The position numbers and the translations under genes are program-made. This document shows positions 965 to 40,700 of a DNA stretch of 64,000 nucleotides, piece after piece (the stretch's first letter is position 1; every line of letters starts with the position of its first letter). The notes below the pieces were generated by a model. It was not told the DNA's origin. It worked only from the letters and a program-made list of their open reading frames with translations, and made no database searches. Source of the DNA: Amphiscolops sp. MND2022 (lineage: Eukaryota); contig OZ076420.1 in the NCBI GenBank assembly GCA_964187785.1, positions 37,386,001 to 37,450,000 of the forward strand, written 5' to 3'.

Positions 965-3900
965 GTTAGTGATTCCTGAAGCAATGATTGTGTGTTAGTC
1001 ATCTCGTTATTATGGAAGTAGTCAAAACTGCGATTGCTAATATATTTGGTCTCAGCTTTTAATCTTTTGATCTCATGTGAAACCTGTTATCTTTCGTTCG
1101 ACATCAGTTAAATCATTAGTTCCTCGAAAACATCGCTGTCGCAGTTTTCCTTGAACACATGCCGCATTACCAATCTGAACAGCCCAGGGTTGTTCAATCA
1201 ATAATTGAAAAAAACAATCATTGCTAACAATTTTATACTTGGCATGGCTTCCAACTTCTGCAATAGTTCAAAAGTGCTAATTTTAATTTCATTTTTATTA
1301 TTACGCCTACTGTACCAAATGAGTTGTTTTTATAAGGTATAGTAATTAAGCGTCTTTCTCTCTCTCTCAATTCCCTTCCCAGTTATTGATTGCTAATTTT
1401 CCAATTATTGCCAATTATTTAGATGATCAAAACGCAATACCGAAGTTTGTCTGAAAATTTTTTAAAAGGTGCAGGACGCGGACGGAAAAGGACAATTGCG
1501 CTGTCAATGTGGTAAAATATTGAAAAAACAGATATTGGTCGAAGAAACTTCAAGTATTGACCAAGAAAACAATGGCTCGAATGCTCGTATATTCAAAAGT
1601 AAGCATTTCGATACTGGGGTAGTGAAAATACTGTAGCGCCGCGAAAATGACTTGGCACCAAAAAATTGCCTCTGCGAGACTTGCCTCAGTAATTCTCAAG
1701 AAGAAAGCAAGGATCACCATTGCATCAGAGTACCATGATTTAGAGTTTTTGTTGCCAACATCTAACTTGCTGGGAACATTTTTCATCCAGCTGGTTTGGC
1801 ATAGTTCAATCTGCGACAGACTGACACTCGAACATCTTCAGCAGTAGCTTTTCCTCAAAGCCAATAATAAACTGTCTGTGGACAACCGAGACTGTGTCGT
1901 GAATGCTTTTGTTAAGTGATTTGTTGTTTGAAATGAATGGATTTTTCTTTGTTGTTTTTCTTTCAATTATTGCAATACTTGCAAATATTTATTGGTGGGA
2001 ACATTTAGCAATATTTATTGGCGATATTCAAGTCCTTGCTATTAATTGCAATTAAAAATTGCACATCCCTGGAACAGCGCTTGAGATACATTGCTTCAAG
2101 AAGCTACTTATGGCATGTCGTCATTCCATAAAAACTGGTTCAAAAAGTCACATAATGTCGAAATTACCCAAAGCCAAAGGTGTAACCCTTTTGGCTCGAA
2201 AACGTATTTAATAAACTGGAAACATCAGAAAACCAGAGCAGCTAACGTCTGGCGAAGTCACGTAAGAAAAACGCACCTATCTGAAAAAAAATTATCTTTT
2301 TTCTACAATTATTGAGAAAACTCATAAGTCCCTTAGGGCAAAAAAAAACGAAATAGGTCACCGTTCTCGGAAAATATTTGGGTTTTTTGTCTAGCCAACG
2401 CACATGCAAAGGAACCCACTCGCCACATAGAGAACCTCACGTTAACCTCCAGGCCAAGTAGTAAGAGAATTGAAATGATAGAAATGTTTACGGCAGAAAC
2501 TGATGGGGGAAAATAAAACAAGCCGGGAACAACCCAAGTCGGCGCCCGCTCAAGTATCTTAAAAAAAACAAGTTCCTTATATGCAAGAGACACTGTTGTA
2601 AACAATGTTATCTACTTCTCAGTGCCAAAAAATATTAGTAGTAATAGACGGGGGGGGGTTTATGCACGTTTATGGCTCTTTTGAAAATTTTCGAAGATTT
2701 TCAATGCACGTTTTGGGCTCCCAAACCGAAAATTTTCTAAGTCAGAAAGGTCAAAGATCATTTTGTTTGAACTGTCAAATTTTGTGTATTTTACCACTCG
2801 GCTGTCAAATTTCATTCACTGTTCAAAATTTTAGTTTGAATTTCTCTGTTGGAAACCGAAACTGAACAAAGTAAACTGAGCTGACATTTCTGTGTCACCC
2901 TCTGATTTCTTATCAAATGCATTCAACCTTATTCTACATGAAGCAAAAGTAACTGAGACAAAACATTATACAAAATATCATATTGCTTAATTGAACGAAG
3001 TTACAATGTATATCTAACTTCGCATAACCTTCGAAAATCAATGTTATGAACTTTTCTTTCCAATTCTGAAAAACTAGAAAATAAACGAAAAAGGCTTCTT
3101 TTGGCAATTAAACCATAGTCCCCATTCAAAGAAAAAACGAAAAAATGTTGCGACATAATTGCAACTACAGACTAAGACATCAATAGGCATAATTAGATTT
3201 GAGGCTTTTTCGCGATCTGAAGCTTTTCAATTAGTAGTTATTGTGGAATTCTTCACATCAATGTTTTTTTACCTATAAAAATTTTTTGCGTGTTGCTTTA
3301 AAAGCGTGTTTTCACGATACTTTGAAGGGGACTATGGCTGTGAAAGATTTTGATCTGAAATGTACTCGTGTTACCAATGTGGGAAGGTTTTGATTTCACA
3401 ACGAGCACTAACAAATCATATCAAAACCAAGCACTTCGATGGTTCTCGAAATGCCAAAGTTTTCCAATGTGGACACTGTTCTGTTGGTTTCACCCAGGTC
3501 AAAAATCTTTTGAGACATCTACGTTCGCAACATCATTTGAATGGCCACTACCGATGTTCTTCTTGTCCCACTTTCTTTGGCTGTTCAACATCTCTCAATG
3601 ATCACGAAAATGACCATGAAATGGCAATTTCATCTCGACCGCGTGTTGCTGAAGAGTCATCAGTGGTTGAATTTACTACAAGAGCATTGAATTCCCGCTT
3701 TCAAATTCATCGAGTTGAAACAGGAAATGCCTCTTTTATTGACCCCTTCAACTGTTTGATTTCTTTGAAAGACAATATTTTGCGTTTCGTGAATTCCTTG
3801 TTGAACTCAACTGCGAGTGTTAAAATAGGATTTTCAATCAGTGTTGGATTGGTCAAACCCATCGTTGAAGAATCAACCGAAGCTTACTTTAATTCTAACA

Positions 3901-6900
3901 TGGTGAGACTGGCTGTTGAAATGACCGAAGAAGAGTATATGGAGCATGTTGATCAGCTAATTAGCCAGTTGAATGTTTTCGCTACCGGTGGTTCGGGCTG
4001 GGTTGTAGAAAAATTGATGCGTTTCGAACTGAAAACAGCTAAATGTGCTTCTGCTGTTGGTGGCTCTTACATTGAGACTCCAGCTATTCTCCAGAAAGTG
4101 AGTCGAAGTCTTTTGAATATCATCAATAAGAGAGACAACCTGTGCTTCATTTACTGCGTTGCTGCAGCTCTCTTCTCTTTTGTTGGACGTCCATTCAGGC
4201 CGAAGACACATCTGAAAAATGTTCAAAAATTGAAGTTCAATGCAAGTGAAATGCCAATGCCACTCTCTGGTATCCGATCGTTCGAGTTGCGAAACAAATG
4301 TAAGATCTATGTGTATCAATTGGATGGTAACAAACTGGTCAACGTTTACAACAGCAAGAACAAAAAGTTCAAACGAAGGGTGGATCTTTTGCGTTTAATC
4401 GAAGGGAAGAAGAGACACTATTGTTTGATTAGAAACTTTTCAAACATCATCCACCATTTATCAAGATCACCAAAGAAGCAAGCAAAGGGACCAAAAAGCC
4501 GGTTTTGTCGAAATTGTTATCAACCTGTCTTGAAACAGAACATGGAAAAACATTTGAAATTTTGTGAAAGCAATGCCCCTTTGGAAATTCGAATGCCCGA
4601 CAAAGAACGCGTTATTGAATTCACTAACTGGCAGAAAACACAATTGAATCCCTTCATAGTTTACGCCGATTTGGAAGCCATAAATGTGCCTTCAATAGGC
4701 TCAATTGGTTGCAAGTTGAAAACCCGAGAAGTGGAGCGGCATTATCCAGCTAGCTACGGTGCCATTCTTGTGGATGCTAAAGGTTTGTAGAACTTTTGTC
4801 TCGAATAATGCCTTAGTCATTTTTTAATTTTTTTTTCAATTTTTATTTTCAGCGGGTGGTGTAATCAAGAAGTCTTTTTACAGAGGACCGAATTGCATCG
4901 AAAAATTGCTTTCAGTTTTACGAGATTGGTGCAAATGGAGTTATCGAGAAAAACAGAAATTCAAATTCCTAAAGATGTGTAAAACGCAGAGAAAAATACT
5001 TTTGTCGGCGCCATCAGCTGAGTGCTGCATTTGTCACAAAACTTCTGAAGTGTCAAATCGAGTAATTCATCATTGCCACGTAACAGGCACAATTTTTGGT
5101 GTTGCTCACTCCAGTTGTAACCTGCGGGCCCAAACCACAAAGTTTCTGCCAATTTTCTTCCACAATCTTTCTCGTTATGATTCGCACCATATCCTTAAAA
5201 ACTTAAGGTTGCTCGCGGGAGAAAAATTGTCAGCAATTGCAAGAACTGACGAAACATTCACATCATTCAGCATAGCGGTACCTGTGGGGAGCTACAAAGA
5301 TAAAAGAAACAAGTTTGTAACTTTACGACATTCATTGAGGTTCTTGGACAGTTTGCAATTCATGTCGCAAAGTCTCGATTCTTTAGCCAAGACTGTGCAA
5401 CTACAAGACTTTGTTCTACTCCGCCGACACTTTTCCCATGTGACAGATGATTTGTTCCAGAAACTTACAAAGAAGGGACATTTCCCGTATAGTTTTTTGG
5501 ATAGTTTACAGAAGTTTGATGTAGCCTTGCCACCGTTCGGCGATGCCTGGAGAAACTCCTTGACTGGATCCATTGACATTACTTCAGAAGATTACGATGA
5601 GGCGGTTAGCATTTACAACGCCTTCTCTTGCCAAAATTTGGGCGATTACCACGACATTTACTTGGGAACAGATGTATTCCTGCTGGCCGATATTTTTGAA
5701 AAATTCAGAAAAGTATGCATGAACGTCTACAAGCTTGATCCATCTCACTTTTACTCAGCGCCCAACTTGAGTTGGGATGCCATGCTTATATCAACAGAAG
5801 CTAAGTTGGGTTTACTCGATGACATTGACAAACTTCTATTTTTTGAAAGGAGCATTCGTGGTGGAGTTAATGGAGTTGGTGAAGTTAGACAATTCAGGGC
5901 GAACAATTCAATGTTGGGTGATTATGATCGAAACGAAGTTACTACCTTTGGTGGGTTTTTCGATGTTACTTCTTTGTACGCAGGTACAATGCAGAAACTG
6001 ATGCCAAGGTGCGATTACATCTGGAACTCTACAATCACTTTGCAAGAAATACTTGAAACACCTGAAGATTCAAGCGTGGGATTTTTTGTTGAAGTCGACT
6101 TAAAGTATCCTCAACACTTGCACGACATTCACAATGGATTGCCTCTAGCGCCAGAAAAACTCGAAATTCGTTCGTCTTGGTTCTCCGACTATGCGAAAAC
6201 TTTCAAAGTGCAACCCAACAAGTCCGCCAAATTGGTGGAAACATTGTTCGACAAGAAAAACTATGTTTGCCACTATGAAATTTTGAAATTTTATGTGAAG
6301 CATGGATTGATTGTTGAGAAGTTACATCGAGTTTGTCAGTTCCAGCAAAGTAGATGGTTGGGAGCGTATATAGAAAAAAATACAACAATGCGCAAACAAG
6401 CCGAAAACGACTTCGAGAAAGCTTTTTTCAAGTTGATGAGCAATGCTTGCTTTGGAAAGACGATGGAGAATCTGCGCAAACGCAGTAACATTCGGTTCCT
6501 CACGAATGTTGAGGAAGCAGAATCTTTTGTTAACAGTGCCGCTTTCAAGGCTTTTCACATTATAAGTGAAAACCTAGTTACAGTTTCCTTCAAGTCTACC
6601 ACTGTTCTTTGGGATAAACCAACTGCAGTTGGGGCCTCAATACTGGATCTCTCAAAGCTGTCTCTATACAAGTTCCATTACGAGGAGATGATTCCCCGCT
6701 ATTCCGCAGACAGACTGAAATTGGCCTACAAAGACACTGATTCACTTCTCTACTGCATTAAAACTGTAAACTTGTACGAGGACATGGCTAGTTTCAAACA
6801 TCTGTTGGACTTGTCCGACTACCCTCGAGAACATTTTCTCTACGATCCAACAAATAAGAAAGTACCATTGACCATGACAGATGAACTTCAAGGCAAAATC

Positions 6901-9900
6901 CTTAGAGAAGTAGTGTGCCTCCGGTCAAAATTGTACAGCATTGACTTTGTCGGGGGTAAAAAGCAGAGTGCTAAAGGTGTCGGCAAGGCAGTGAAGAAAA
7001 CTCTCAATCACAACATTTTCAAAGAGTGTCTTCTGAGCAAAAAATCAATCAGCAAAAAGATGACTCAGTTGAGGTCTGTCAACCATCAAATCATTGTTAA
7101 TTCAGTAGACAAAGTTGCCCTGACGTCCTTCGACGACAAACGTTACCTTTTGGACGATGGCATCCATTCCCTCGCCTATGGCCACTATGCTATTCCTGCA
7201 TCTACTGAAGGTAGTATTCATAATTTTTAACTAAAAAGAAAAGTGTTGAATTTTAACTTTTTTTTCTAATTTAGCCCGTTCAAATACTTCTGACGACAGC
7301 GGAGCTAATAGTGACAGTGAAAGCAGCGCTTCCACTTCTGAAGAATTTTATTCGGATTGTGACAATGGAGATTCATTCACGTCTTCATCCTCCACGTCCT
7401 CGTCCTCAGAAACAATGTCGCAAGATACTCCATTGAAACGAACCTGGTACTCGGATGTGGCCCAATTTTGTAAGTAATCTGTTCAGAAAAAAAATATATA
7501 TTTTGTTCTCATGGCTTGCTTGATTGTTTAAATTGAATTTTCGTAAATAGGCGCCCCTGATCCTGGTTTCAATCAAACTTTATCTGTCGGCAACGACGAG
7601 GATCAACTGTCTGACATTGTTGATTGGGACAATCTGTCAGTAGAATATGCCAGTGATGACAACGAATCCCGGTATAATTGTCCATTCAACGACTATGAAG
7701 CCGAACATTCAAGTGATGACAGTGTTGGCAACCACACGAGGAGAAAAGTTTCTCGCAAAACCACATTAAACCTAGTGAATTATTCTTCCTCTAACAGTGA
7801 AAATGACAGTTGTTGATAGTGGTGTTGGGAAATTCTTCGGAAACGTTTCAATTGGAAAATTTGTAATAATCGTAAATTTGTACATCGGAACATTATGTAT
7901 TTATAAAATTAATAAAATCAATCTCTGTAGCATGCATCAGGTTTTGCGAATTGCCGAACTTTTGCAAGGTTTTTCTACAATGTAAAATATCGAAGCAAGA
8001 CAGTTTAAGCCACGCCTACAGCTGCTAAAATTCTTTTGGGCTAGCCTAATCATTCCGCATCTTTTTTGAATAGTTTGGGTTAAAAGTCTATACATCGGAA
8101 TTGAAGTTTTTCATACAACAATATATCTAAAGTGGGTTTTGTATTGGCAATTCATAAAACGAACAATTTCAACTTCAGTAAAGTGCTTTAGTTTGGCATC
8201 AATGTTCGGTACCTTTGTTGGGTTCCTTGCAATGTAGTCAATCATGAAGAGACAGTAGAGACCGCACATGTTTGAACTCAAATTTTGTAGGCGTAAGTTT
8301 ATCGTCAAAAATCCAGTCTCTCTGTACAAAAGTCTCAGACGTTGAGCAAAAGTTTTGTAGTGCGACAAGGGCTGACCCAGACAATCCCAAATAAAAACTC
8401 GGATACTGCTTTGTTTAGTTACCACGGCACCCAGTAGCAGCCAATGTTTTCCCAATGCGCCCGCTGGGGATGTGTTGATAATTTGGAACCAAGCCAAACG
8501 AGGTCTTGGGTACAACATGTTTTTCTGTCTTCGCTTTTTGTTCCATGCTGGCTGCTTGGGAAAATTGTCGGCAGACCAAACACCAGCGAAACTGGTAATT
8601 AAACGTGGATTCTGTATAATAGCACTGTGCAACGTTCCACTATCCATCAAACGAGCTGTTTTTCTTGATATTGCGCGCAGAGTCAATGAAAACCTGACTA
8701 AATCGCTCCCCAATCAAAAAGAGTTCAATGGCATCATCAAGTGCTTTCTCAAAGTACAGCTTAAGAGTCAAACTGGATCCCGTTAGCTCGGGAAAAAGTG
8801 TAAAGGTTTTACTAGCTTCTTCAGTTGATGTCAAGTCGAACACAAGAAAGAAATGGTTGTCTGTGTAATCCTCCAGGCTGATACCGTTACTCTTTTGGGT
8901 GAATCCAAGGGCTGTGATGGTGTTGTAGTACAATCTCACATTGTTTGTAGTATCCAATGGTGTCCCTGCTAAAGGCACACCATTGCCCCTTTGGATTTCC
9001 ACTCTTTGCAAGTTGAACTTTTGGTATGAGAAAGGAGACTCGTTCAGTGGCGTACTACGGAACAGAGAGTTTTTAACCATGCACAAAGTTAGTCGTCGAA
9101 TCGGCTCGGTGCCAAAAACGTTTTCCTTGATGAAACAATTCTGTCCGGCTTGAATAATGAAACTTTTGTTCAAATTTTCAATATATGGATATATTGCATC
9201 GCTTTTCACCAATGCTCTCTCTATTGACAGTTTAACACTGTCTGTCACCACAACTTTCCTCACAAAAAGGGAAGCCTTCTCTACAATGGCCAAGAGTTTT
9301 CCTTCGTGTGCTTTTGCTTCGTCATCGGTGCCTTTGAGATGGATGATTGTGTTACTTGGCGAGCGATAGAGCCGAATATGTAGGGTGACATTGGGCAGTA
9401 AAAGTTTTTCGCAATCCAAAAAGTCAATGTGGAGAGCACCGCATAACTGCATTTTGCATTCTTTCAGTTGAGCAAAATCAGCTGCAAGCTTGTTGAACAT
9501 TTGATCCTTCTCATTGGACTTGGCTAAATAGTTGTAGCCTTGACATTTGGCCCACGAAGCTTTACTATCGGTGTCGGTGGTCAATTCAGTTTCCACAAAG
9601 GCTGAATGCAAGTAGCAATTGTTGCTGTGAGAAATCAATTTTCCATTTAGATACAATTCTGCATGGGAAAAGAGTGTGTGGAGGGTATTGTTGGAGAAAA
9701 CGGCTTCAAAGTCACCTGGTTTAGCCTTTGTCTTTCCGTCATCATGATAGATGGCAACCTCAACACTGAGAACAATGCGATTCAAGTCAATCAAATTTTT
9801 CGCTTCAGCGGCAACAAAAAAATCCAATTGAGGTCCACGGCATCCCACGTGCGGGAAAACTTCTTGGTCGTAGGACCCTTCGTAATTGATCATTACTTCA

Positions 9901-12900
9901 GGCTTTTCGAAATAGTCTAGAGCGCTGTGTGTCACTGGTTTTGCAATTTCCAAGGAATTGCCAACAAACATATTGTTAACTGATGCCATCCTCTGAACTT
10001 GACTCTACTGGGCAAATTGAATTTCAGACAAAATGTCGGACCGACTTCTCTTGGCGCGGGCTTTTGTTGAAATGTTTGAAAGATTACTCCGCTTTCTATT
10101 CCCCGATGATAATTTGACGTTTCGTGTAATTCCTTCGTTCGCTGCCGCCGACCGCCGCGGTCCGGGCTTCCGCCGCCGGGCCGCAGGGTAATTCCGCTCG
10201 GCAAATTTGTTTTCACCGTTTCGAGGGCGGTCCTTTTGACGACATTAGTCAACAGCTTACGGCTGGGCTTCTTCCTACCTGTCAAGATCTGTCCAATTTC
10301 AGGAACGGCGCTTTCTATCAAGTTTTTGCCGACTTGCTTTGCTACAGGTAAGATGTACTTTCTAACTAGTGGAATGGCCACACGACCCATTCGGACAGCA
10401 AAAGCTCCAATGCCACCCCCAGATCCCATCTGCCTGGCTGGACCGCTGAACGTTGAGTGAGTGTTTGCTTTAATTTGTGAATCGTAATGAGCATCCATTC
10501 TGGAGCTAATCGAAAAACAATTGTTCAAATGGAGCGACTGTACTTTTCACGATTTCCAGGATGAATGATGCCCAGTCAATGTCGTGGTGCTGGCCTGAAA
10601 GCCAGAGTCACATTGGTGCGACCGCAACTCAAAAAGGGCATTTTTTGACCCATTTCATTAGCAAGAAAAACATTGATTGACTGGAATTGGGGTTTTATGA
10701 CGCGTTTCCATTGCAGATTAGTAAAACTTTTATGATTCATCTCTCCCAACGTCTGTACCATTGTTACACTTTTTAGAGGAACTGATCGCAAAAGTGCCGT
10801 CTGCTTGTCGCCCAATGTTTGGTTTTGTACGAGGTCGCAGTACAAAAACATTGTATGGCTGCCCGCATTCAAGTCGACTGGCCATTTTCCTACATGTTTG
10901 ACAATTGTGTTTGATGGAGATTCTGCATCGATCTTTTCCTCTTCTTTAGGTCCCTCACTACAATCAATGATTACATTGGTGCCCAAAATGTTTTGCAAAT
11001 CATTGGACTCTGTGAAAACTTTCAGTCCATCTTTTTCAATGCTTCCACAAAATTTCACATGTATTTTACCCGAGACTTTGTCAATTTTCCATGTTAAAAG
11101 TGACGGAACAATGTCAGGCGATGATGCGTTCCGTTTCTCTCCAACTTTTTTCTTTCCGGTGGCAATTTTTGAGATTGCTTCTAAAATTGATTCTACTGAT
11201 GTATAACAACCCGGTTTTATGCGGTGCGTTACAGGAGCAGTGTATGAAGGAGGCAAAGCTTGGGTTCGGAATGGTGCAGGAGTCGTCATTGAAATTCCAC
11301 CGTGCAAAATGTGCTTGCGTGGTCGCTTGTCGATGGGTGGCTGGATGTGTCTTTTGGATACAGTAAATTCGCCCACAGTCACATTTTGAACGCTATTGGG
11401 CCAAGCAATCTCCACTAAAGCCACCTGCCATTCTCCCGAAAGATGGATTGGTGTTGGTAAAAGTGTCGTAAAACTGGACAACGTGTTCTCGGGGAAAGTA
11501 TCCATGGAAGCATTAGAAACGAGATTCATGGTGAATTCTTGTGAGTAACTTGAATGATCAAAAGTTCCTGAGGGTCCGTCCATTGTTGAAGACTGTCAAT
11601 GTGGAGCGAATCGCACGAGTTCAGGCTCGTAAAATTTACCTTGGATAATTTCGCCGTCACAATCTTTAACAACGTAAGTTGGAGGATTGGTAGTTGGTAT
11701 TGCTGTAATTGTGAACAGTTCTTCTGTGAATTGTATTTTGTAACCTCGATGAAAAGTGTCAATCTTTCGTCGAATGCGAACTTGTTGGCCGATTTTGAAC
11801 TTTGGCTTCTTTTGAGCGTTTGTGTGACAGAGAGAAACTAAATAGTTGACGTCTTTATTTGAAACTGAAGACGGCGCTAACTTCGTCATTCGATTCACCC
11901 GATTGTTAATGATTGCCACAAATTGGTGAAGTTTATCACAATATCTACTTTGGTCATGTTCGTGCATATATTTGAATATTAACGATTTTAGAGATCTAAT
12001 ATTTCTTTCGGCTAATGCAGACTTTGTCTCACTTTTGGTGGAATAAATCTGAATCCCCTTCTGACTGCAAAAAGTTGCAAAGTCGCCCGAAAACTCACGT
12101 CCCTTGTCAACCCAAATTTTTTCTGGGCTTTGCCTTTCACTGCAAATCTTTGGTTTAGGTGACTTCTCATTCTTGGCAATGATTGTTTTCAAAGCTTCTC
12201 TACATGACTGTGCTGTTTTCATCTTGATGGGTTCAACCCATAAATAACGACTCAGGACGTCTACAGCCACAAATAGATATCGGATGCCGGAATTACTGTT
12301 TGCCAGCTGTTGCATGTCAGCCAAGTCGACCGACCAAATTTCATTCAGCCTATAGCAAATAACTTTCAACCGTGGAAAACGTTTTCTAGTCAGTTTGAAT
12401 TTTGTGTAAGTTTCGCTCGAGTTCAAATAACGTTCTACATCTTTTGGACGTAACTTGGATTCTTTTATCAAGTTTAGTCTACCCCCGAAAGCAGACCCCT
12501 TTTTAGGGTTGGTGTAGTAATCGTGGATTTTTGTGAAGGCAGCTGCGTAGTCTCTGTCTACTTCGTCATTTAGCAATTTTCGGTGTTTTTTGCAATTGGA
12601 GCACAAGAAATTGTCGTGATAGTCTTTGCTGTCTGTTAGTCCACTGCATTTGAAGTGAACCCATCCGCAAACGTGACACCAAAGTGATGGAGTTTTCTTT
12701 GTCCCTTTACCCAGACCTGTTTTGCATGATCCACAGAACCACTTCTTATTTTTCATTCTCAAAAGTTCGTGAGCCACTGATTAGGTGCGATTTCGTTGTC
12801 GAGCTTCTGTCTTTTGTAGGGTGAAGCACCGGCAGCAAGTCTAATTTGATGTTGATTCTGACTGCTAGTGTGCCTTGCATAGGTGTTGGCCAGTAAAAAT

Positions 12901-15900
12901 TGCGGAAGTCTGAGAACTTCAACCAAAGTTAGAAACTTTTTCGGCAACTGTTTAGTATTCACCTGCAATGCAGACAAAAATTCAACTACACTGATTCCTG
13001 TGTCTTGTTGGTCCAATAATATAGTATGATTGGTGTCATCTATTTTGGTTCGCTCACAATCTTCAATCTTCTTCAAAATTTGTCGTGATCTCTCAACTTT
13101 TCCGCCTGTGACACCAGATTCTAGTAAATTAGACAAAACTTGATCGGAGGGTTTCTGACGTGATTCGTTCACTTTTTCACTGCTTTTAGTGAGCTCCGTT
13201 TCTGTAGGATACCTTGAATTTAGATTCATCTGCGCCACTAGAGCCTCTTCTGATAACTGTTTTACTGGCTCAGAAACGTTCATATTTTGTTCTTGATGCA
13301 CATGTTGTGGATCTTGGCCGACGTTTGAAAGTATTTGTTGCTTTTGCTTTTCGCGACCGTCTGGCTTCTTTGCTTGTTGTTTCAAAGATATATATTCCTC
13401 GTGAGTAATGAGGATGAGATTGCGTAGGCTACTGATCGCTGTCATGGCACTTTTTCAAATGACTCTGAACTGATGGAAGGACTACTTTCAGCAACCGCAA
13501 CCCTCTGTCAGAGCCTAAAACTTGACGCTTTCTCTTCAAAGAAACTCGTTTCTTTGTGCAAATTGTCTCAATGTTGCTTTTTTCTCGTGACAATAGAGAC
13601 ATTTTTTCTCGCACGTTCTTTTCCAGCGAGACTTTCCCCTTTACTACGTTGAAAATGCAATCACAAAGAAATTTAATTATTTCGTCGGGACAATGGAGAA
13701 TCAAAAACTTTCTCAGAGTAGGTGAAAATTTTTGGTACAAACTAAGAGTATAATAATTTTGTAAATTCATCATTAATTGAAATGAAAAGTTGATCTGTAG
13801 CACAATGAAAATGAGTTGGTTCGTCTCCTGAGCAATGAGAGGAATATCTCAAATTTCTACTACTTCGAACATCTAGGTCGATCATCAAATGACCAAACGG
13901 GTGTTGCGTAGCCCTTTTATATGCCTTCATCAAAGTTGATCGCTCGCCCAGTTGACGTCCCAAGATTCCAATTTGTTCCAAATCTCGAGGGCTGTTGAAC
14001 AGAATCATCTGAGTGACATTCAGATCAATCGTCTTTGCGTTTTTCGACTGCTGGTAAAGATTATGTCGCAGTACCATTAAATGTACATTTTTATGTCGAC
14101 CTGCAATAACTAGGTCTAGAAACTCTTTAGTTTGAGCCGCTTCATCATACAAGTCATCAATAACAACCAAAGTTCTCTGCTTCAGGGCCTCACTTCGCTC
14201 CAGAACGTTCCACTCCAAACCTTGAACTAGTTCAAGATCGACAGCTTTAGTTGAACACCCAGCTTTAAGTTTTTCATAAGAATCTTGCCCGTGTTTGTAA
14301 AAGTAGATAATTCTATCGAAAAACGGTCGGAAAATTTTCTCCTGATTCGTAATCATCCTTCCAATTAAGTTTGTCTTGCCACATCCAGCGGGGCCAATGA
14401 TTGAAATGAAGCAATGCGGATTGGTGCTAATTCTCTTGTTCATGATTTCGGGCCGGGTATAACGTGACCAACGCAAGCTGAAAGAATTGCCAACACACCT
14501 GAGGCAAATTTGCTCTCTGCTTCACAAAGGGACAGAAATACAATACAGAAAAATATTACAGCGAGAATAATAACATAATGGATGCAAACTAGGACCAACG
14601 ATCTCTCGATGCGCGATTCACAACAGTCAAAATTGTATGGAGGTCTTTCTTCGTCTTTGTTGTTGAAAATAATTCTTTCCAAATTTGGAACAGACAAATC
14701 AGCGCAGTCAAGTTGGTCTTCTTGACTCCCGGAAAGGTTCAACGTCAACTCGCTACAATATCCACTGCTCTGACAGGTGTCCGTGTTGCTCATAACCGTT
14801 AGTGTTTGGAAGTTATGTTGCGACCGAACTCAAGGTGGTTCGAGAATTGGAATGAATGTTTAGAATGGGAATGCATCAAAGTGCTCCGGATGGAAAATTT
14901 TAACAAACGTCCAATAAGCTATCCCGGAGACATGTCCTAGGAGCATGTTGTTGCGGAAGGACTGTGTTTTCGTTATGGTGTAAACATAGCCGGGTCCAAC
15001 GTTCTCAAAACTTCTCATATAACCATGTGCATCATGAAAAATTGCATGCAATCGCAATATTTTTGAAAAATTGAAATAGTTGTCTAGTTTACTGTCTCCT
15101 GGTCCTATTTTCCCGCCAGAATGGGCTAAAACATTGACCTTTCTCAAATCAACATTTTCATCCAGATAACGGCACACTGCTAGGAATGCGTTTTTAGTGG
15201 TAGTGTTTCTTGGAAACAAATAATTTACGGCGTTGAAGTTCTCACAAATTTCTCTCGCTGAAAACATTTTTGCTTCGTGAAAAGAATTGTATTGGATCCA
15301 ACTGTTTTCTAGAAAAGTTTTTACAAAAATGAAGTATCAATTATAGTGTCTTCATTGAAGAGAGAAAATAATTGAGTGTTTCTGTTTTGGTCGTCTGGTG
15401 TTTCATGTAATGGTTGATAGAGACACTCGTAGCATGTGCATTGAGCATTTGAAACACCCAAGTCAATGTCCAACGTTCGGCTGTGCTCCGTAACGAAAAA
15501 TCGTCCAACCCCTCGCTGCAAAAGATCGATGTAGGATATAATTGTGTCTTTGAAAGGTGCATCACTTTTCTCGAGCTCCAATAGTTTCTGGAAAACGTAA
15601 AGAGCCTTTTCACTGTCGGCACAGTTTCCAAATGAATTGTTTTTCTCAAGTTCCCATAAAGATACAAAGCTGCAACCCAAACTCACACTCGTTTTCGCCT
15701 TTATCAGCTTCTGCATTTTTTCTCCTCTGACTACCAGTGATTCATCGCAGTAGATTGACGTTTCTGCTTTTGAAAAATTCTCAGGGTATGAGACGGTTAA
15801 TAGTTTGACTTTGGCATTGTGTACATTCGACAGTGTTTGAGAAACTGACTGCTTTATCAACTTCTCGCCTCCAGCTGAATGGGGAAGGTAGAGCAGAATG

Positions 15901-18900
15901 TGATAGTGATTTGAAGGCATCCACTGGCAGAAGTCCTCGAGTTGACCATCGCTATTTTCTTGGATGTTGTGCTTCCTGTAAAGGAACTGACAGTCATTTG
16001 AGCTGGTTAGCTTCTCGAGCATTTCGGCAACGCTCGATGGCATGCCTTGGTTACTTTCTTTCTGAGCTCTAGAACCGCTTGCGACCTTTTCAGTTTTTTC
16101 ATCAGTGGAAAATAGAAGAAGCCAATAGTTAGATGGTATTTCACGAAACACAGTCGTCATTTGAATTAGCTGCTGATTTGTAATGAAGGAATTTTATATT
16201 TGACGTTTTGGCGAACAGTTATCTGACTAATTGCGTCAGTATCTCAATTGGAAGTTTCCTAGGCACGTAGATAGCAACTGTCCCTAAAAGGAGAAATTTC
16301 ATAGAAATGATAGTTGTAGCTTTTTCTATTATTAGGCATTGATTGATGTCCTATGGCGTTTGTCTTCAGCTGATGAGAAATTTTAGTGGATTAGTCTTAT
16401 AGGCTGTAGGATGTCATACAACTAAGCATTAAGTGTAAAATGAAAAAGCAAGATACTGCCGCTCGTGTGTTTCTAGTTTCTCAGAACATGGAAGACTTCA
16501 TTCTGCCTTTATCAAAGTCTCTTTTTACATTTACTTACACTCCGTCATTGTTCCGCCAACGAAAGGTTAGTTTTCTTCAAATTCTCCTGCAAGTTTATGC
16601 ATGTTTACAGCTCTTTAGCTGAAATTCTTCGAAGATTCTCTTGCACTTTTTGGGCTCCCGCGTCGAGATTATCAGAAAAGTCTATTTTGACGTATAGTAA
16701 ATGAAATTTGACAGCCGAGTGATAAAATATACAAAATTTCACAGTTCAAACAAAATGATCTTTGACCTTTCTGACTTAGAAAATTTTCGGTTTGGGAGCC
16801 CAAAACGTGCATTGAAAATCTTCGAAAATTTTCAAAAGAGCCATAAACGTGCATAAACCCCCCCCGTCTATTACTACTAATATTCGAAGGGATACGCGAA
16901 GACTCGAAAACCAAATTTTCACCAACTGGAAACAACAAAGAACCCATTTTTTGAAAATATATTTTTTTCGTGATCTTTTGTTAAGCAAACTCTCATAGTG
17001 CTGAAAAAGAAGTTTCAAGCTCGCCATAGGCTTTCTCCAGTCGAAAATAATTATGAAAGTGAAGAGGTACATTTGACCAAACAAGATTTTTTTTAAGGAA
17101 AGTCGCACGGTGCCGAAAAATACCATAGGTCATTTCCACAGTTACGAGCTCTACCAATCCTAACAGATGGATTGAGGAAAAGTTTTGAATAAAACAACTG
17201 TTTCTGTTCTGGAAAAGTTTCCAACTCTCATTTGCAACCGTGACAAACTTTAGTGCTCTGGAAGATCCTCAAGGGAAACACTGAACTCTCCCACCGAGAA
17301 AATTAGTTTTTCGAAGGAAAACACTTTTCACCAGCAAAAGAAACACCAGTCAACTCCTGCAACTGTTAATGAAACTGACATGATCCAATCGGTCACATCG
17401 GCAAAAGTTCGAAATGCTATTAACTGAATCGAAACAGTATAACTTTCAACCCCGGTGGTTTTCATCTCAAGTTGCTGAAACCCTCTGGGCCTTTGATCCT
17501 ACGCAGGGAGGAGTTTGTTGAACTATTCTTAGCGGCCAGGATATAAATTTAGGGGAAAGGCAAACTCATTTTACAGGCGAATGAAGGTAGAAAGATCATC
17601 TACAGGAGGCCTAAAGTTATCGGCATATTATTTTTTCTTAGCCTCATTGGAAAACTTTTTGAATCCATTCTAGTTGAGAGAATAAACTTTACCACAATCA
17701 AAATTAACTTGCTAAGTGCTAGAAAAGTTGCTAAGTGCTGGAAAAAAGTTTACGCAGATACTATAAGATATTCACAGACAAACGATGCGAGAAATTCAAG
17801 ATAAAAGGCAGTTCATATATGGATAGACTTAGTCAAAGCTTCTGAATAAATTTCCTAACATTCAATTTTCTCGAATCTGGCGACGACGGAACGTCAGCAG
17901 TGCTCGTCAGTGTTTTTGTGTATTTTGTATTGCGATTTTATTGCGAGAACCTTAGTTGCGTAGGTACGGGTGTTCATTACTAACGCGAAAATTCTGCGTT
18001 GTTTCCTAATACACACTCCCACTGAAGAAACTCGTGGTTTCAATATCAAAAACCACGACTTTCTTCAGTGGGACTTTTCAGTGAAAAATGGTCGAATTTG
18101 TCATTATTAAACGTTGAATTAAACGAATTCATTGCATGATTCATTGCGAAAAGTTTCTGGTCTATTCTGTAACCTTTCATTTGTTTCAGCCAAGAGGAGG
18201 AGCATCTGAATTCGCTTGTGATCTTTTTCGTGCTCACTATTCTACTGCTTTGCATTTTCCTTGTCCACTTTCTCATTCGGTTCAAGTTGAATGTATTGCC
18301 CGAATCAATTGCAGTCATCTTCCTTGGAGCTATAGTTGGACTTGTTCTCAAGATATTGAACAGAAATAACATACTCGACCTCCAGGTATCTTCGTTTCCA
18401 TACAATTTCAACCTGCTTGACTGTGTATTCTGTTTTACATTTCTTTAAGTTAGTTTGAAGTGTTCACTTACTGCAAATGCGACTTGAAATTATCAACAGT
18501 GATGATAATTTGTATAAATCGCCTGTCTTCATGACCCTATTACCACGTTTTAAAACATTTTCGCATCACTAGAAATCTTATGACAAGTTTTATATTGGGC
18601 TTATTTGAGTACCTGGAAACTAACTTTCTCGTGAATCGACGTCCTTTGCTTCTGAAATTATCTGGGAGACCAAAAGGGTTCAAAAACATGCGCTAATTGT
18701 TTACAAAAAGTATCTGGAATTGAAAACGTATACTGGAATTCACTCAAGCCTCAAGGGTGTTCATCCTGTTTTTTGATCACTTACTAGTTTAATTGTTTGC
18801 TTACAAGTGCAGGTATTAATTTTGTTTGAATTGTAATTCAGTCCGTTCCCTTCTCTTGTAACTGTAGTGTCGCTGTTTCAGGATGCAGAGACCTTTAACC

Positions 18901-21900
18901 CCACCGTGTTTTTCCTGCTCTTCTTGCCTCCTATCATCTTCGAGGCCGGCTACTCCCTGCATAAAGGAAACTTCTTCCAGAACATCGGCTCCATTCTCAC
19001 CCTTGCCATATTTGGCACTGCTATCTCGGCCATGGTCATCGGAGCAGGTGTGTACGTTCTGGGTATCGCTGGACTCGTGTATGAGCTGAGTATAGTGGAG
19101 AGCTTTGCTTTCGGCAGTCTCATTTCGGCCGTTGACCCCGTCGCCACTTTGGCCATCTTCCAGGTACCTGGTTTTGTTGACTGTATTATGGAAAATTGAT
19201 TGCACTCGAGTAAATCGGTCGGCGCTTGATCAATGTGCAACTTTGCTCTGTTTTCCTTTTGCATGTCTGAGACAGTTGCCATGCTGAAATTGACGTGATG
19301 GTTTTTTGACATACGATACAAATCTCGATGAATGTGGTTGGCAGCCTTAAAAACATGAATTTCAACTAGGGTTTCATTGAAACTAGTGAAATTTATTGTG
19401 ATTTTTCGTCCGTAAACGAAATCACACTACATTTTCACTAGTTTCAATGAAACCCTAGTTGAAATTCGTGCATGTTTTAGAAGTTGCCAACTACTTTCAA
19501 GATTTTCTAAAACTTCTTCCGATAGTATGTAGCATGGGGAAAGTTCCGGCAGTCATGAAGTTCAGTTAATGAACTCTTTCAGCGTTTTAGCGATACTGAA
19601 ATAAATGGTTTTACTGTTATCGAGAAAAGCAGCGGTGATCAAATTTAATAAGACCCCTGCTTGCTTATTTCCTAGTTAATCAATCAGATATTTCTTCCCC
19701 GTTATCTCACTGAAAAAAAAAGTGGAACCCGTTAGTTGAATGTGTTTACAGGCTTTGGACATCGACCCAGTTCTGTACATGTTGGTGTTTGGCGAAAGTG
19801 TGTTGAATGACGCAGTGGCAATTGTCATGACAACCACCATTCTGTTGATGAGTCACGCGGACTATGCAGCCATGTCAGGAGTCTCGCTGCTCTTCTTCGG
19901 CCTAAAACATTTCATGGTCATGTTTTTTGCGTCCTCCTTCCTCGGCGCAGTGTTTGGGGCTGTTTCAGCCCTTCTACTCAAACATTTCGACTTGAGGTAA
20001 GACTATGAGCTGTTCACTTTTGGTGTGGACTGTTCAAACCATAGGTCGAGGTGTTTTACGGGTGAATTATTGTAGATTCTTTGATTATTCGGAATCAAAC
20101 ATTTTCTTTTACTGGTCGTCCTCTTTTTCAAAAAGTGCAAGTATTACAGTGTCAAGTTTTATTTTCTCCAGCTGTCACTGTAATGACCTCTTTTTTGTTC
20201 AGTTTGTTCAGCTTCGTTAGTAGTTTTATACCCTTCTGGAGCGAGTGTAAAATGCATCTTAGCACACAGATTACAAGGCATGAAGGTAACAAAGGGTCTC
20301 TTAGATCTTTTGTTGTTCAGTTAAGCAAAAGTCTCCATTAGTCCGAAAGCATTTTCAAAAGTATTTTTTTGCGCTTTTGAGCCTCAAGCGGGGCGCCGAC
20401 TTGGACCGTATCAAGTTTATTTTATTCTCTGATGAAAACTTACTTTGTTTGTTTGTTTACAAAACTCATTTTTTAAAAGCTAAGATTGTTCGGACAGAAA
20501 CGTCAGAATCAGCGCAAAAATATCTGGTTGCTTTCAACCCAAAGTGGCAAGCAACTTCAAATATAATTTAGCATCTACTGCAGAAGGTTCAGAAACTAAA
20601 AAAACTATAAAATGCGTGTATTTAATGTTTCATTTCATTGCTAATAAAATTGTGATCTAATCTCAATCCTGATTTGTAACCCTGTTTTAGCGACACCCCA
20701 TCCCTGGAGTTCGGTTTCATCCTCATCTTCGCATATCTGCCCTATGGACTCGCAGAAGGAATGCACCTCTCAGGGATCATGGCTGCTCTTTTCTGTGGCA
20801 TCACCATGTCGCATTATACCCATGTCAATCTGTCTCCCATGACGCAAATTACTGTCCAACAAGCCTTTCGCACGATGGCTTTCATGGCTGAAAATTGTGT
20901 ATTCGCATATCTCGGTCTTGGTAAGCCTCAAATTTGTTACTTCGTTATCTTCAACTGGCTTACGTTTAAAAGTCACGTCATGTTTTCTGACGTTTTAGCG
21001 ATCTTCTCGTTCCACCACCGTGTGGAAGTGGCCCTTATAGTGTGGAGTCTACTGTTGATCTTGGTCAGCCGTGCAGTCAATATCTTCCCTCTTTCCTTTA
21101 TCCTTAACTTCTTCCGCGACCACAAGATCACACGCAAGATGCAGACTATCATGTGGTTCTCGGGACTACGTGGGGCCATCGCCTTCGCTTTGTCCCTCTT
21201 CCTCAACTTCGGAAACGACAAACACGAAGTGATCAAAACCACAACTCTCATCATCGTTCTTTTCTCAACCCTCATTCTAGGAGGTTGGTATCACTGTTAC
21301 TTGCCATCCTTCATTATGATTCCAAGTCCTCTTGGGTATTAGCTAGTGGATCCTTCCTATTAAATGCTCATTTTGTATGATCCCATCACGTTTTTTTGTT
21401 GAAAATGTATCAGTATCAGATGCAATGCTGAGAACCACATGTAATCAAGGTTCTTGTGGGTTTTTGCAAAACCTTGTGACTCTCATTGAGAAAACTATTG
21501 TTTTAATGCACAGATGAACTGATATTTTTGACAATAAAATAGCAGAAATCTGGTGTTTAATTTAAAAACAATTCAATCTTGAGATTAGCGATCAGTGGTT
21601 TTCAGAATACTATCGGCGTCTCTTGGTACTGTCAAATTCGGAAAAGTTTTTTAATTTTCGGACTGTCCGACGAAATGGACTGCAACTCAAGCGGTTAGCC
21701 GTTGTTTAGAAAAGCGGAATAAGCGAAAAGCGCACATCCAAAAGGCGAGCGTAACGATTAACGAATTTTCATTACCGAGTCAATACACTGGTTGAGATTT
21801 TTTGCTCTGTATGAACTGAAGATAAAACCTGCGTTTTGATTCATTATTACAATCCTTTGAACAGTTGCGCATGAGTCCCTTTATTTAATATGTCATCTTT

Positions 21901-31426: not shown

Positions 31427-33263
31427 TAGAGACAGGAATTTTATGTGAACAAATATTTCTTGTGAAAACATATTGAGGCGTGAATTGTGTAACACATATG
31501 TGGTCACATATTCCAATTGGTTAGCACATTTAGCCACATATTGTGGCATTGTCGTAAGTAAGCAAACAATCCAGCAAGGGGATTGAAAACGGGCAGGTAC
31601 CGACAAGCATTAATTGTTGACGGCCCCTGGTTGGCACGTGATTGGTTATTCTACTGCAACCGATTACAAGTATTAATTTTCTATTAGTGCAAGAAATGCC
31701 TCGTTCTGCGTTGAGCTCCGCGGAGCGAGCAACAATGTTTGCCAGGGAGAACAAGAATATCTTAAAAGCAGATGGTCAGCTTCTGGTTTGCGTAGTTTGT
31801 TCTACAAAAGTCTCTTACAATCTCAGGAGCCAAGTGACTCAACATTTGGACAGTGAAAAACATAAGAAGAATTACTTGTTATCAACTCGACAAGCTTTAA
31901 ATACCACCGAAACTCAGGGCGGGAATTTGTTTTATAAAGAAATAGCCCATGCTATGATTTCCGCAAATATTCCTCTACAGAAACTTGATAATCCCGCTTT
32001 CAAGGCCTTTCTTGAAAAATGGGCGAAAATATCTGTTCCCTCGGCGTCTGTTGTTAGGAAAACTTACGGTAAAATTATATATGAAGAATGCTTGCAAAAA
32101 GTTCGACAACAAGTTGGTGACCACCAAATTTGGATTGGAGTTGATGAGACAACTGACATGTGCAAGCGGTATGTGGGAGTTACAGTTGGTGGTGATTTGG
32201 TTACCGGAAAAACTTTTCTTTTAAACTGCGCAATTTTACAAGAAACAAATCATTCGACTGTTTCAAAATTGATTATGGACAGTTTGTACCTGCTGTACCC
32301 ACAGGGTATAAAATATGACAACATTCTCTTATTGGTTACGGACGGTGCCGCTTATATGAAAAAATGTTACAAGGACGTTATTAAAGCACTTTTTTTCAAA
32401 AACGCTTCACATTACCTGCATTGCCCATATGTTGCATAACGTGGCAGAAACAGCGCGAGCGTCGTTTCCGGAGGTCGACAAACTTGTTTCCTCTGAAAAA
32501 AGTTTTCAAAAAATCTCCAAAGAGAATTCAAGCCTTCAAAAACACATTTCCATTGTTTTCCTTACCACCCGAACCTGTTGTGACTCGTTGGGGAACATGG
32601 TTGAAAGCAGTGGATTACATATCACAAAATCAAGAAAAAATTTTGTCCGTTATTGAAACATTTAACGAAGAGGAAAATGCCGCCATTCTACAGGGTAAAA
32701 ACATGTTATCCAATGCATCGATAATTCGCCAACTTCATCAAGTAAACAAAAATTTTGCTGTTATTTCGAATGCTTTGAATGAAATTGAAAACACTCTATC
32801 CGTTCCTGACATCATCTCCATGCTGAATCGAATTCGCGACAATATTGGAGACCCCGCACCTATGCAAAAATTCCAGCAGGGTCTAGACAAAAACGAAGGC
32901 TGTACCGTTCTGAAAACATTTGTTGAGGGCTGTGAAAAATCTGGACCCCTCGAAAATTGGACTACTGCAGATTTAGCATTAGCAGAAAGGTTGCCTCTAC
33001 AAAACTGTAACGCAGAGCGTGCATTCAGCCGTTTTAACGATGTCCTGACTGACCGGAGAACGAACTTGACCGAAGAAAATCTATCAAAGTTTCTTTTTGC
33101 CATGTGTAACTTTAATTTCTAGGATTTATTATTGATGTTCAGTAATAAAAATTCTTCTTTTGGGCTGTTTTTACCGCATATTTAAGCACATATTCGAATA
33201 CAGGTTAGCAAATTTTATATTACATAAAACGAGGTTTTAAAACACATAAAATTCTTGTCTCTA
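31427..33263 (+). mobile_element. hAT-superfamily DNA transposon (1837 bp)
   Basis: ~21-bp TIR TAGAGACArGAATTTTATGTG; perfect 8-bp TSD GTAGTTAT; transposase inside. Confidence 0.92.
31696..33122 (+). pseudogene. hAT transposase (CGGBP1-like Zn finger, DUF659-type core) with two frameshifts
   Basis: CVVC..QH...KH finger; VDETTD, TDGAAYM, CIAH, TRWGTW, AERAFS; frameshifts near 32395 and 32495. Confidence 0.85.
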
Positions 33264-37700: not shown

Positions 37701-40700
37701 AGAGCCACCGAACAAACCCGAAAGTTTTACTTTGAGGGTCCTTCCCCCGAACAATTTAAGGCTTTCAATGTTATTGGAAGCTTTCTTCGCGGCCTTCCCA
37801 ATGCCTCTGTTTTGGCCACGTGTTCCCCGATCCCAATTTGACCTTGCCGGTCTCCTACTACCGTGGCTACCCAAAACCGCGAGCCCTCGTATGTTCTGGT
37901 TTTGTTACGACAGGATCTATTTTGAGAACCAGAATGTCAAAGTTTTCCTTGTTTATCCTGGCCGTTTTCTGAGGTTTGCCCAGAGTTACAGCTCCAAGTT
38001 CTGAGGTGAAGCCCTCAGAACTTTCGGGGATGAGAGAATTGACAATTCAGACAACGAACTAGACGATGAAGGTGATGAGGGGGAACTAGATGAGCTGGAC
38101 GATGACCCAGAACTGCTGGGTGACCAAAAAGTAATCTATGAAACCAGCGACATTTATTTGCTTTTCAAACAACAGATCTGAAAAAATATTAGGAGCCTTT
38201 TCGCTTACTGTTCTGTTCCGAAGAACACCGGGCAGTTAATACAACTAGGTAAACAATAACTATTCAGTATAATTATGAAGTCAGAAAAAATGAGCATGGA
38301 AACAGAATTATATACGTCAACTTAAATGACAATATACAAGACATTTGAAAATTTCACATGGTGTGACTCGAACCCACGTGGACCATACCGTTGGTTTTTG
38401 CAAACATCAGCGTTAACCACCCAGTCATATGGCTGACTCACACCGTGTTCTGGTTGCATCTCAATAATGAATAATTACATGAGACACTAGCCGGCCTCAA
38501 TTTCATTCATTGCACTGAATGAAATTCGATGTGAACGTTCAATGCACAAGGGTAAATGCATCATTCCAAAGATCTGATCGAAATAGATTTGAAAAATTTC
38601 TACCAAAGCCAGAAACCACGTGGCGGAGTGGTAAGCCACCCGACTGCTGTCGCGAAAGTCGTGGGTTTGAGCCCCACCATCGTCTAAATGTTCATTATTA
38701 TTTATGACCCGCTAAAAGTAAAAATCAAGCAGTACTTACCTCGGGTCACGTGTTTTAAGACCCACCAAAATTGTTAAGCATATCTTGCTCCACTAGTCAC
38801 ACACATATACTACATCCCGAGACCCCCAAAACTTCTGAGAACACCTGTAATTGTTCGGTAAAACGCGATCTTGAGATTGACGTTGAATACACAAAAAAAA
38901 AACAGAATATAAACAACAAATGCGAGTAGTTAAATAGTTACAGGAACATAACTGGGCTACTGCTTTGTGGAAAGTCAACAAGACAAAGAACACAAAACAT
39001 AAATTGTACACAAAGCGAATGGATATAATTGTAATATCAAATATCATCGTCCATTTCATGCTACGCTTGAAAACGTTTTTATTTTTTTTTGCATTGCTCA
39101 TCAACGTGATGTTAAGATTAACGTTAGTTACATAACAGTGATAAACATCAAATGCAAGTAGTTGAATGATAACAGAAACATAACTGGGTGACTGTATTGT
39201 AGAAAGTCAACAAGACAAAAAACAAATAAATAGTACATAAAGCATTTGAATTGCATTGTGAAACATCAGTAAGACGAAGATCATTTCTACATAAAATAAT
39301 CACCAAATGCATGTCATGATATCACCCGATTTCTGAGTTCGTAACATCTCGTATTTTCTCTAGGAAAAAGCTATGTGCATTTTTGAGACTTAAGATTTCT
39401 TTTCGGCATTCTTTCAAGCTGTAATAGACTGGAAAATGAATAAGAAAGTGAACTAAAAGTAAGGTATCTCAAACACAAAGTTTATGTATGATCATGTACA
39501 TTGATCGCTAGACTATATCGTGAGTAGCATCAACAAAGAATGTTCGTACAATGAGGTTTATGTTAACAGGTACTATGAACTTAATTGTCACAGTGGCATC
39601 ATCTCTCATTCCCCCCTCTGTAGTTCAGGGAAACCATTGCTGATTCTCGGTTGGTGTCCACTTGATCGGGGCTTTAGCTTGCGCGTTGTCTTTCTTTATC
39701 TTCGGGAAAGGAGTCCGCAGAAATTATTGATAGTTGCTGCAAACTTGTAAGTGATGATTTCTTCTGGTGTAATGCTGTTGAACTCGCATTTTCTCTCAAT
39801 ATCCACAAGTCTTTTCCAATATTCATCCAACGTTTCACTGTCTCGTTTAATTTTGAAGAATTGTGGTCGACTGTGGAATACATTTCTTGCAGGAATAAAT
39901 GTCGTATTGAATAATTTCAGCAGCTCTGGGAGATCAATGTCTTTTAGTTCTTTGCCCCACTGGCCTCTCATTATTTCGTGTTTGGCCTTGGGACCTAATG
40001 CCCAAATGACGTCTCCCTTGATGTGGTACACCGTATGCGGGTCCATTTGATCGATGCCTTGGTCCATCAGTTCATCCAAATTTCGGTTATACGTAAGGTG
40101 TATATACTCAGAAATTTGCTCCCACCACATTCGTGGGTTCATTTTGGTCAGGTCCGTCTCCCTGTCCGATAAAATCGAAATTTTATATTTGTTCTTCTCC
40201 AGTCGGTCTGCTGTTGTCTGATTCATTATCGTCTGATTCGCGGCCGGTTGGCCCGATTGTTCCGACGTACTCGGGTCTAAATTGTTGTCCATTAGCTTGC
40301 TGGCTGCGCCATGTAATAGACTGGAGAAATGAGTAAGAAAGTGAATTAAAAGTAAGGTATCTCAAACACAAAGTTTATGTATGATCATGTACACTGATCG
40401 CTAGACTATATCGTGAGTAGCATCAACAAAGAATGTTCGTACAATGAGGTTTATGTTAGCAGGTACTATGAACTTAATTGTCACAGTGGCATCATCTCTC
40501 ATTCCCCCCTCTGTAGTTCAGGGAAACCATTGCTGATTCTCGGTGGGTTCCCACTTGATCGGGGCTTTAGCTTGCGCGTTGTCTTTCTTTATCTTCGGGA
40601 AAGGAGTCCGCAGAAATCATTGATAGTTGCTGCAAACTTGTAAGTGATAATTTCTTCTGGTGTAATGCTCGAATAAATATTCCACAATCAGCTACATGGC

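Follow-up and report, generated by a model that had tools for sequence, protein, structure and literature searches.

A predicted spliced C-terminal tail on the protein-primed DNA polymerase of an animal Polinton

Our analysis indicates that two tail introns, as predicted from the DNA, join a Ser/Asp/Glu-rich tail of 153 amino acids to the end of the protein-primed DNA polymerase (pPolB) of a Polinton/Maverick in an animal genome of 1.07 Gb. The element is 14.2 kb long and spans 2637-16878 of the window, by which we mean the whole 64,000-nucleotide stretch of contig OZ076420.1 from Amphiscolops sp. MND2022 that was analysed. We lean towards the view that one branch of animal Polintons has long had the tail as a constitutive C-terminal part of its polymerase, that the two introns of the tail are ordinary spliceosomal introns which would have entered later, in one sub-lineage, and that the tail could serve the enzyme as an arm for docking to its host. 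As far as its sequence can be compared with published descriptions, a spliced and conserved C-terminal arm on this known kind of enzyme is apparently undescribed.

The element and its polymerase gene

The element carries the hallmarks of a Polinton/Maverick, namely terminal inverted repeats, a 6-bp target-site duplication, a protein-primed PolB, an rve integrase, a packaging ATPase and an adenain-like protease (Table 1). For the double jelly-roll major capsid protein of Polintons the probable candidate is the 454-aa ORF, a label given by size and position only, as it has no match in Pfam, PHROGs or PDB sequences. By eye, and with no Pfam match, the N-terminal Cys/His pattern of the integrase resembles what we take to be a PHD finger, and could be another possible chromatin reader of the Polinton. 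A 158-aa ORF on the minus strand (14860-15336), with no Pfam or PHROG match, has GPG and HD words that we presume to resemble those of parvovirus-type phospholipase A2. PLA2X genes are mentioned for adintoviruses in the part of the source seen (PMC8502044).

Elsewhere in the window, two ORFs, labelled by eye as Gag-like and as copia-type pol (1236 aa), stand in one frame at 44580-48965 (+), with a single stop between them that would mean read-through or decay; degenerate tandem repeats of about 1.6 kb lie at 38850-44500 and 49200-50200. Also by eye, there are exons resembling a Na+/H+ exchanger at 20680-22485, a two-frame transposase-like ORF pair at 31642-33122 and an aldehyde-dehydrogenase-like exon at 57522-58103.

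Table 1. Features of the Polinton and its polymerase gene, in window positions
Feature	Position	Strand	Basis
Left 6-bp target-site duplication	2631-2636		Identical hexamer at 16879-16884
Left terminal inverted repeat	2637-2820		Inverted pairs I1 and I6, 97-98% complementary; end set by duplication
pPolB exon 1, N-terminal C2H2 fingers plus more of the N-terminal region	3360-4782	+	ORF 3354-4790, zf-C2H2 matches
pPolB internal intron, phase 1, 70 nt	4783-4852	+	Flanks joined by one codon in families C, F, I, J; intron in B, D, E, G, H
pPolB exon 2, endonuclease VII-like insert and polymerase core	4853-7210	+	PF03175 E=5e-21, PF02945 E=2e-5
Predicted tail intron 1, phase 1, 64 nt, GT-AG	7211-7274	+	Contains in-frame TAA 7228-7230
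Tail exon T1, Ser/Asp/Glu-rich linker with short hydrophobic-rich end	7275-7469	+	195 nt, single open frame
Predicted tail intron 2, phase 1, 81 nt, GT-AG	7470-7550	+	Acceptor 5 nt upstream of PDPG codons
Tail exon T2, conserved motifs and stop	7551-7816	+	T2 profile: 58 proteins at E<=0.001
PDPGF motif	7556-7570	+	D, P, G invariant in 12/12 aligned T2 sequences
Hydrophobic-D-W/F-D motif, acidic context	7616-7630	+	T2 alignment
C/N-P-F-x3-E-A motif, candidate histone or chaperone-type docking	7679-7711	+	In 34/35 tails
Basic run, candidate nuclear localisation signal (label inferred)	7739-7759	+	Basic cluster after F-x3-E-A motif in 27/35 tails
Terminal hydrophobic-x-Y-Ser/acidic patch	7772-7801	+	Compared C-termini
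AATAAA, first polyadenylation-like signal past tail stop	7911-7916	+	No AATAAA/ATTAAA in 7211-7550
Adenain-like cysteine protease	8111-8713	-	PF02902 above cut-off; PF00770 weak, below cut-off
454-aa ORF, probable major capsid protein	8640-10004	-	Size and position only
Retrovirus-like integrase	11596-12780	-	PF00665 E=1e-10
A32-like packaging ATPase	13742-14521	-	PF04665 E=1e-6, above cut-off
Right terminal inverted repeat	16696-16878		Inverted pairing and duplication
Right 6-bp target-site duplication	16879-16884		Repeats hexamer of 2631-2636

The polymerase frame (4828-7230) runs into its TAA 13 codons past the GHY motif. Tail intron 1 begins with the donor GT at 7211 and ends with the acceptor AG at 7273-7274; it has a T-tract, and its CTAAT at 7266-7270 resembles a branch site. 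Tail intron 2 runs from a phase-1 donor GT at 7470 to an acceptor AG at 7549-7550. T1 and T2 each have one open frame of three, and in both it is the frame that the junctions require. The tail thus adds (1+195+263)/3 = 153 aa, and arithmetic gives a protein of 1413 aa when spliced against 1266 aa with the intron at 7211-7274 retained. The sequence-only reading of this DNA had placed the unspliced stop at 7230 and had splicing through two in-phase junctions add about 153 residues, and its coordinates proved exact. It had also held two open, in-phase exons to be unlikely by chance, and here too we agree: after shuffling (20,000 shuffles each) T1 is open in 2.9% and T2 in 0.41% of cases, so that the product for both is 1.2e-4, or 4e-5 with a one-in-three phase term. 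Since these probabilities ignore the freedom in splice-site choice, comparison between families, in all ten of which both tail junctions are kept, is the stronger test. Moreover, the internal intron at 4783-4852 is shown by four intronless families, so the pPolB gene needs splicing anyway.

The tail had been described as low-complexity, which suits T1, a Ser/acidic linker (21 Ser of 64) without any invariant column, but not T2, with its conserved motifs. There are 30 D/E against 9 K/R in 151 aa of tail, as compared with 46 K/R in the last 300 aa of the polymerase. Position +7 of the F-x3-E-A motif, which the search pattern leaves unfixed, is occupied by E in 31 of 34 tails; the window's family has His there. 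The terminal patch is lacking in families D, G and J. We take the basic run to be a candidate NLS and the terminal patch to be a candidate CK2 site. We gave no weight to a DSGxxS word in the window's T1, which we assume to be degron-like, since it is missing from other families. Neither T1 nor T2 has a Pfam match; the T2 profile found nothing among PDB sequences, wider or motif-centred tail profiles gave chance matches only (RecA and V-ATPase E, for example), and the ESM Atlas held no usable match for T2, a homolog's tail scoring only 0.83-0.85.

Copies, families and relatives of the tail

Polintons are abundant in the host genome, with at least 150 scored polymerase-end matches among 2341 first-look candidates and at least 10 families; many copies of family B have identical scores and are therefore young. 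Four tandem copies of polymerase end plus tail (L022, L024, L025 and L026; G000:C12, 9.82 Mb) stand about 1747 bases apart. From 110 loci we removed duplicates, 8 were unparsable, and 59 were scored with splice sites picked blind to frame. Of these 59, 46 had an in-frame path, and in 6 of 10 families most copies did. Blind picking did not succeed in families G, I and J, and in H it chose wrong sites. For 13 representative loci from the 10 families the second acceptor was set 5 nt before PDPG and the second donor was picked blind, with a by-eye splice site needed in 4 of the 13. In all 13, T1 has a length that is a multiple of 3, at nine different lengths (168-210 nt), and the tail introns, of 60-88 nt, come in any length phase. 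Every one of the ten families has a phase-1 first donor 5-9 codons past the GH[YH] motif; among the loci it keeps this phase in 12 of 13 (the remaining one has an upstream deletion), T2 is open in 12 of 13, and the acceptor of tail intron 2 is AG in 12 of 13, being altered in L107.

Between families T2 gives pN<pS in 12/12 pairs, a comparison biased low by protein-guided alignment and by synonymous sites near saturation. The closer pairs show few changes, with pN/pS of 0.86 for B1/B2 and 1.27 for I1/I2 (6 changes), values that give no sign of constraint on T2 as protein. Multiples of 3 among family B copies (19/22) were not counted as selection, because trinucleotide slippage explains them. 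Six families (A, B, D, E, G and H) carry the internal pPolB intron, and four (C, F, I and J) are without it at the same codon. This intron is thus patchy where both tail introns occur in all ten families, a pattern of gain or loss within one Polinton radiation.

Nine further places in the genome match the tail region of the window's own family (A), counting L008/L012 as one place and L010/L011 as one. The tail region is intact in L002-L004; there are frameshifts in T1 or T2 in L005, L006, L009 and L010, altered splice sites in L006, L008 and L009, and L007 and L008 have a damaged polymerase frame as well. Frameshifts in other copies had been named beforehand as grounds for rejecting a coding tail, and they do occur, but the lesions, of frame and of splice site alike, are all private to single copies. 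The indels common to L007 and L009 are one of 3 nt in T2, the only shared exon indel, and others of 1, 2 and 4 nt in introns. From the changes that these two copies share, pN/pS is 0.08 for the polymerase, 0.30 for T1 (7N/7S, p=0.02) and 0.96 for T2 (7N/2S, not significant). By this measure T1 is constrained as protein within family A, and the same depth gives no protein-level constraint on T2.

In other assemblies the T2 profile found 16 longer proteins and 58 representatives (E<=0.001). Under a strict pattern, polymerase end and tail lie in one uninterrupted ORF in 18 of 71 T2-profile matches, 7 of the 18 being one near-identical family, and inspection by eye adds about seven fused forms. 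Fused forms on short contigs could be transcripts; some, however, are on contigs of 107-643 kb, and several lie on contigs of more than 100 kb and so are genomic. The closest named relatives of the window's polymerase are from the acoel Convolutriloba macropyga, where the RefSeq protein XP_075240282.1 has polymerase and tail fused and a 99% identical ORF call lies on a 645-kb contig. In that species the models XP_075240282.1 and XP_075260000.1 (both 'uncharacterized protein') resemble the window in carrying these tail motifs after the end of pPolB, whereas the matching ORF call (P0146) is without the tail introns. The tail is therefore already in the databases through these models, yet it is undescribed there.

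Among the best 120 polymerase relatives, 109 include the end motif; 98 of the 109 end no more than 25 aa beyond GH, so that pPolBs as a group can do without the tail. Another 8 of the 109 run on for at least 60 aa past the end motif, and five of these match the tail clearly. A tree was built from 66 polymerase ends over 142 columns, with 24 distant short forms included and with root and order unproven. In it, tail-bearing forms and near relatives fall on one side of a branch with support 93/86 (not starred); the ten intron-bearing families group with five of the fused forms at 100/100, and a further 18 fused forms are placed outside that clade. Because tail and polymerase form one uninterrupted ORF in other assemblies and in the acoel RefSeq protein, the tail is probably old and its introns probably later gains, as far as sequences can date them. 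A search for long proteins with the tail of P0120 found none among 148 candidates (a weak search), and of 12 pattern matches to the tail in IMG/VR none was confirmed.

Two relatives may bear on the order of the introns. In P0138 the frame runs through hydrophobic residues immediately ahead of PDPG that resemble intron 2 in translation; P0143 carries polymerase and T1-like sequence and ends before T2. Neither has a break at intron 1. By eye, then, tail intron 2 may be older than intron 1.

One product, and what the tail may do

We expect that the normal mRNA is fully spliced and yields one protein of 1413 aa, and on the gene structure we regard this as very probable. The sequence-only reading had suggested two polymerase isoforms. 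In such a scheme, keeping the intron at 7211-7274 would give a short, conventional pPolB and splicing it the tailed form, with a division of labour such as replication versus integration. Intron 1 does sit at the exact boundary of core and tail in 10/10 families, in 9/10 a retained intron 1 brings a stop no more than 21 codons from GHY, the short product would equal most pPolB relatives in length, and family B has an ATTAAA 18 nt into tail intron 1. However, the retained read past GHY amounts to 8-21 unrelated residues in nine families, and neither stop position nor peptide is conserved. In family G, intron 1 is stop-free (72 nt) and the frame continues into T1, and the window's TAA is lost in place in L007, L009 and L010, a sister sub-lineage in which a 1-nt insertion shifts it away and the donor is retained. 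In five families the stop is a TAG within a GTTAG donor read in phase 1, and a stop in an AT-rich intron of 60-80 nt is to be expected by chance. Intronless relatives can encode only the long form, and the window has no AATAAA or ATTAAA ahead of the tail stop. A stop upstream of a spliced intron makes a message a substrate for nonsense-mediated decay, and one with intron 1 retained and intron 2 spliced would be such a message. The suggestion of two isoforms is accordingly unsupported, and on the sequence we consider regulated isoforms improbable.

Still less credible, and to our minds nearly negligible, is the idea that the tail exons form a small gene of their own, or a non-coding sequence that merely looks spliceable. 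It could appeal to an internal ATG in the window's T1 and to T2 alone being called as a short ORF in many assemblies; but we rejected that ATG as a start codon, families B, E, F, I and J have no ATG in T1, the same sequence is fused to pPolB without introns elsewhere, and family G reads from the polymerase into T1 without a stop.

How could a constitutive tail, the reading that we prefer, serve the polymerase? The Ser/acidic linker T1 would hold out the short motifs of T2, and the basic run with its adjacent Ser/acidic patch would bring the polymerase to the nucleus in a manner tuned by phosphorylation. Judging from these motifs, the tail is likely to be a disordered docking arm for nuclear import and phosphorylation. 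The acidic blocks and the F-x3-E-A-x-E motif may in turn bind histones or a chaperone such as FACT, and this would let a processivity-type, protein-primed polymerase copy chromatin-covered templates. Among possible partners we name histones or FACT-like chaperones first, though only tentatively. That the tail is a built-in histone-chaperone arm, mimicking the acidic N-terminal motif of Spt6/Spt5, by which the enzyme would itself strip or recycle nucleosomes, seems to us rather unlikely. The earlier proposal of a phosphorylatable, localisation or chaperone-like tail thus fits the motifs, from which its role is read.

As the main rival reading, a constitutive tail could also work within the element: its motifs might fold back in cis onto the polymerase thumb or the DNA groove, imitating DNA, or they might bind the element's own integrase, protease or capsid. 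A strongly acidic tail does adjoin a basic polymerase end, and PDPG and D-W/F-D are without a recognised host counterpart. But the spacing from GH to PDPG varies between 42 and 105 aa, the basic run and the terminal patch look host-facing, and the same motif types occur in the N-terminus of host Spt6, so that we find such a role unlikely.

A docking arm would bear on the question of how single-subunit Polinton polymerases copy chromatin-covered DNA in animal nuclei; in the portions of the texts consulted for the tail, these polymerases are without a known host partner. A short, conserved and isolatable tail with host-like motifs would allow a cheap and direct test. As a corollary, annotation from ORFs cuts these polymerases short at an end that looks convincing but is false, and a chaperone arm, if it is one, would have stayed hidden where later-gained introns separated the tail from the polymerase ORF. 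More generally, it appears that Polinton genes can acquire ordinary spliceosomal introns, and retain them, in one lineage after another (at three positions here), which would point to a long stay in the host nucleus.

Comparison with known systems

The start of host Spt6 (PF14632) has the same aromatic-x3-E-A-x-E-S spacing as the tail, a pattern that occurs once in 93,996 control positions, and it is the best host segment under the tail profile, albeit at E=0.12 only. The acidic N-terminal domain of Spt6 is, like the tail, an acidic disordered region with basic blocks, and in host Spt6 a basic run is likewise followed by a hydrophobic/DSD patch. That domain, however, is N-terminal, whereas the Polinton tail is C-terminal on a DNA polymerase and gives no significant profile match: Pfam scans of the tails returned SPT6_acidic in 0/12 and 0/25 proteins, and SPT6_acidic at rank 4 (score 0.83) for a homolog's tail in the ESM Atlas is a lead only. 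In the passages seen of one study, the Spt6 domain binds H2A-H2B and H3-H4 via its acidic blocks, and is a proposed DNA mimic; histone binding is there tied to these blocks and not to the F-x3-E-A-x-E motif (10.1101/2024.11.25.625227). The host's own core histone genes (L131, G000:C67) form a 3633-bp tandem unit, H2B-H3-H2A-H4 on one strand, with at least 150 matches.

For yeast Spt5N, the text available to us gives F180, E184 and V187 as required for H3-H4 binding (PMC8886531). Like the tail, Spt5N has F and E four apart in an acidic tail on a polymerase-associated machine, which makes two of the three essential residues. An aromatic and a Glu so spaced are found in 34/35 tails, partly by construction of the pattern. 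The V at +7, on the other hand, is found in 0/34 tails, which mostly have E there; Spt5_N was returned in 0/12 and 0/25 proteins by the Pfam scans, and the host Spt5 N-terminal motif is absent from the 11 kb searched. The histone-binding motif of the MCM2/POLA1 type, as excerpted from PMC11383432, pairs two conserved aromatic residues at a distance of 8-10 aa within an acidic region; T2 does not show this pattern, its conserved aromatic columns standing 19-20 apart. The portions seen of PMC13289920 and PMC12851032 have nothing on the tail motif. We assign the tail to none of the Spt6, Spt5N and MCM2/POLA1 families and yet judge, from its motifs, that it would work like them.

Among viral enzymes, papillomavirus E1's N-terminal regulatory region is, in the passages seen, disordered and variable, with conserved islands of short motifs, an NLS and phosphosites (PMC13520174). 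As a motif-bearing disordered arm on a viral replication enzyme it resembles the tail, though by analogy only, since it stands at the other end of its protein and has no sequence match to the Polinton tail.

Among pPolBs themselves, a word search of the available portions of PMC11161782, PMC10748475 and PMC8502044 found neither 'acidic' nor a C-terminal extension. We did not find the tail in print; supplements, the PolB compilations (PMC8502044, PMC11161782), Repbase and subscription journals could mention it. The passages seen do note inserted endonuclease-type domains in Polinton pPolB (PMC11161782), place the described extras, a terminal protein and a vOTU, at the N-terminus (PMC11161782, PMC8502044) and report introner sequences in dinoflagellate polintoviruses (PMC12166617), so that introns in such elements are not unheard of. 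In element anatomy and polymerase core (PF03175) the window agrees with Polinton/Maverick (eupolintovirus, adintovirus) pPolB as known; it differs from it in three predicted spliceosomal introns and in the 153-aa C-terminal arm.
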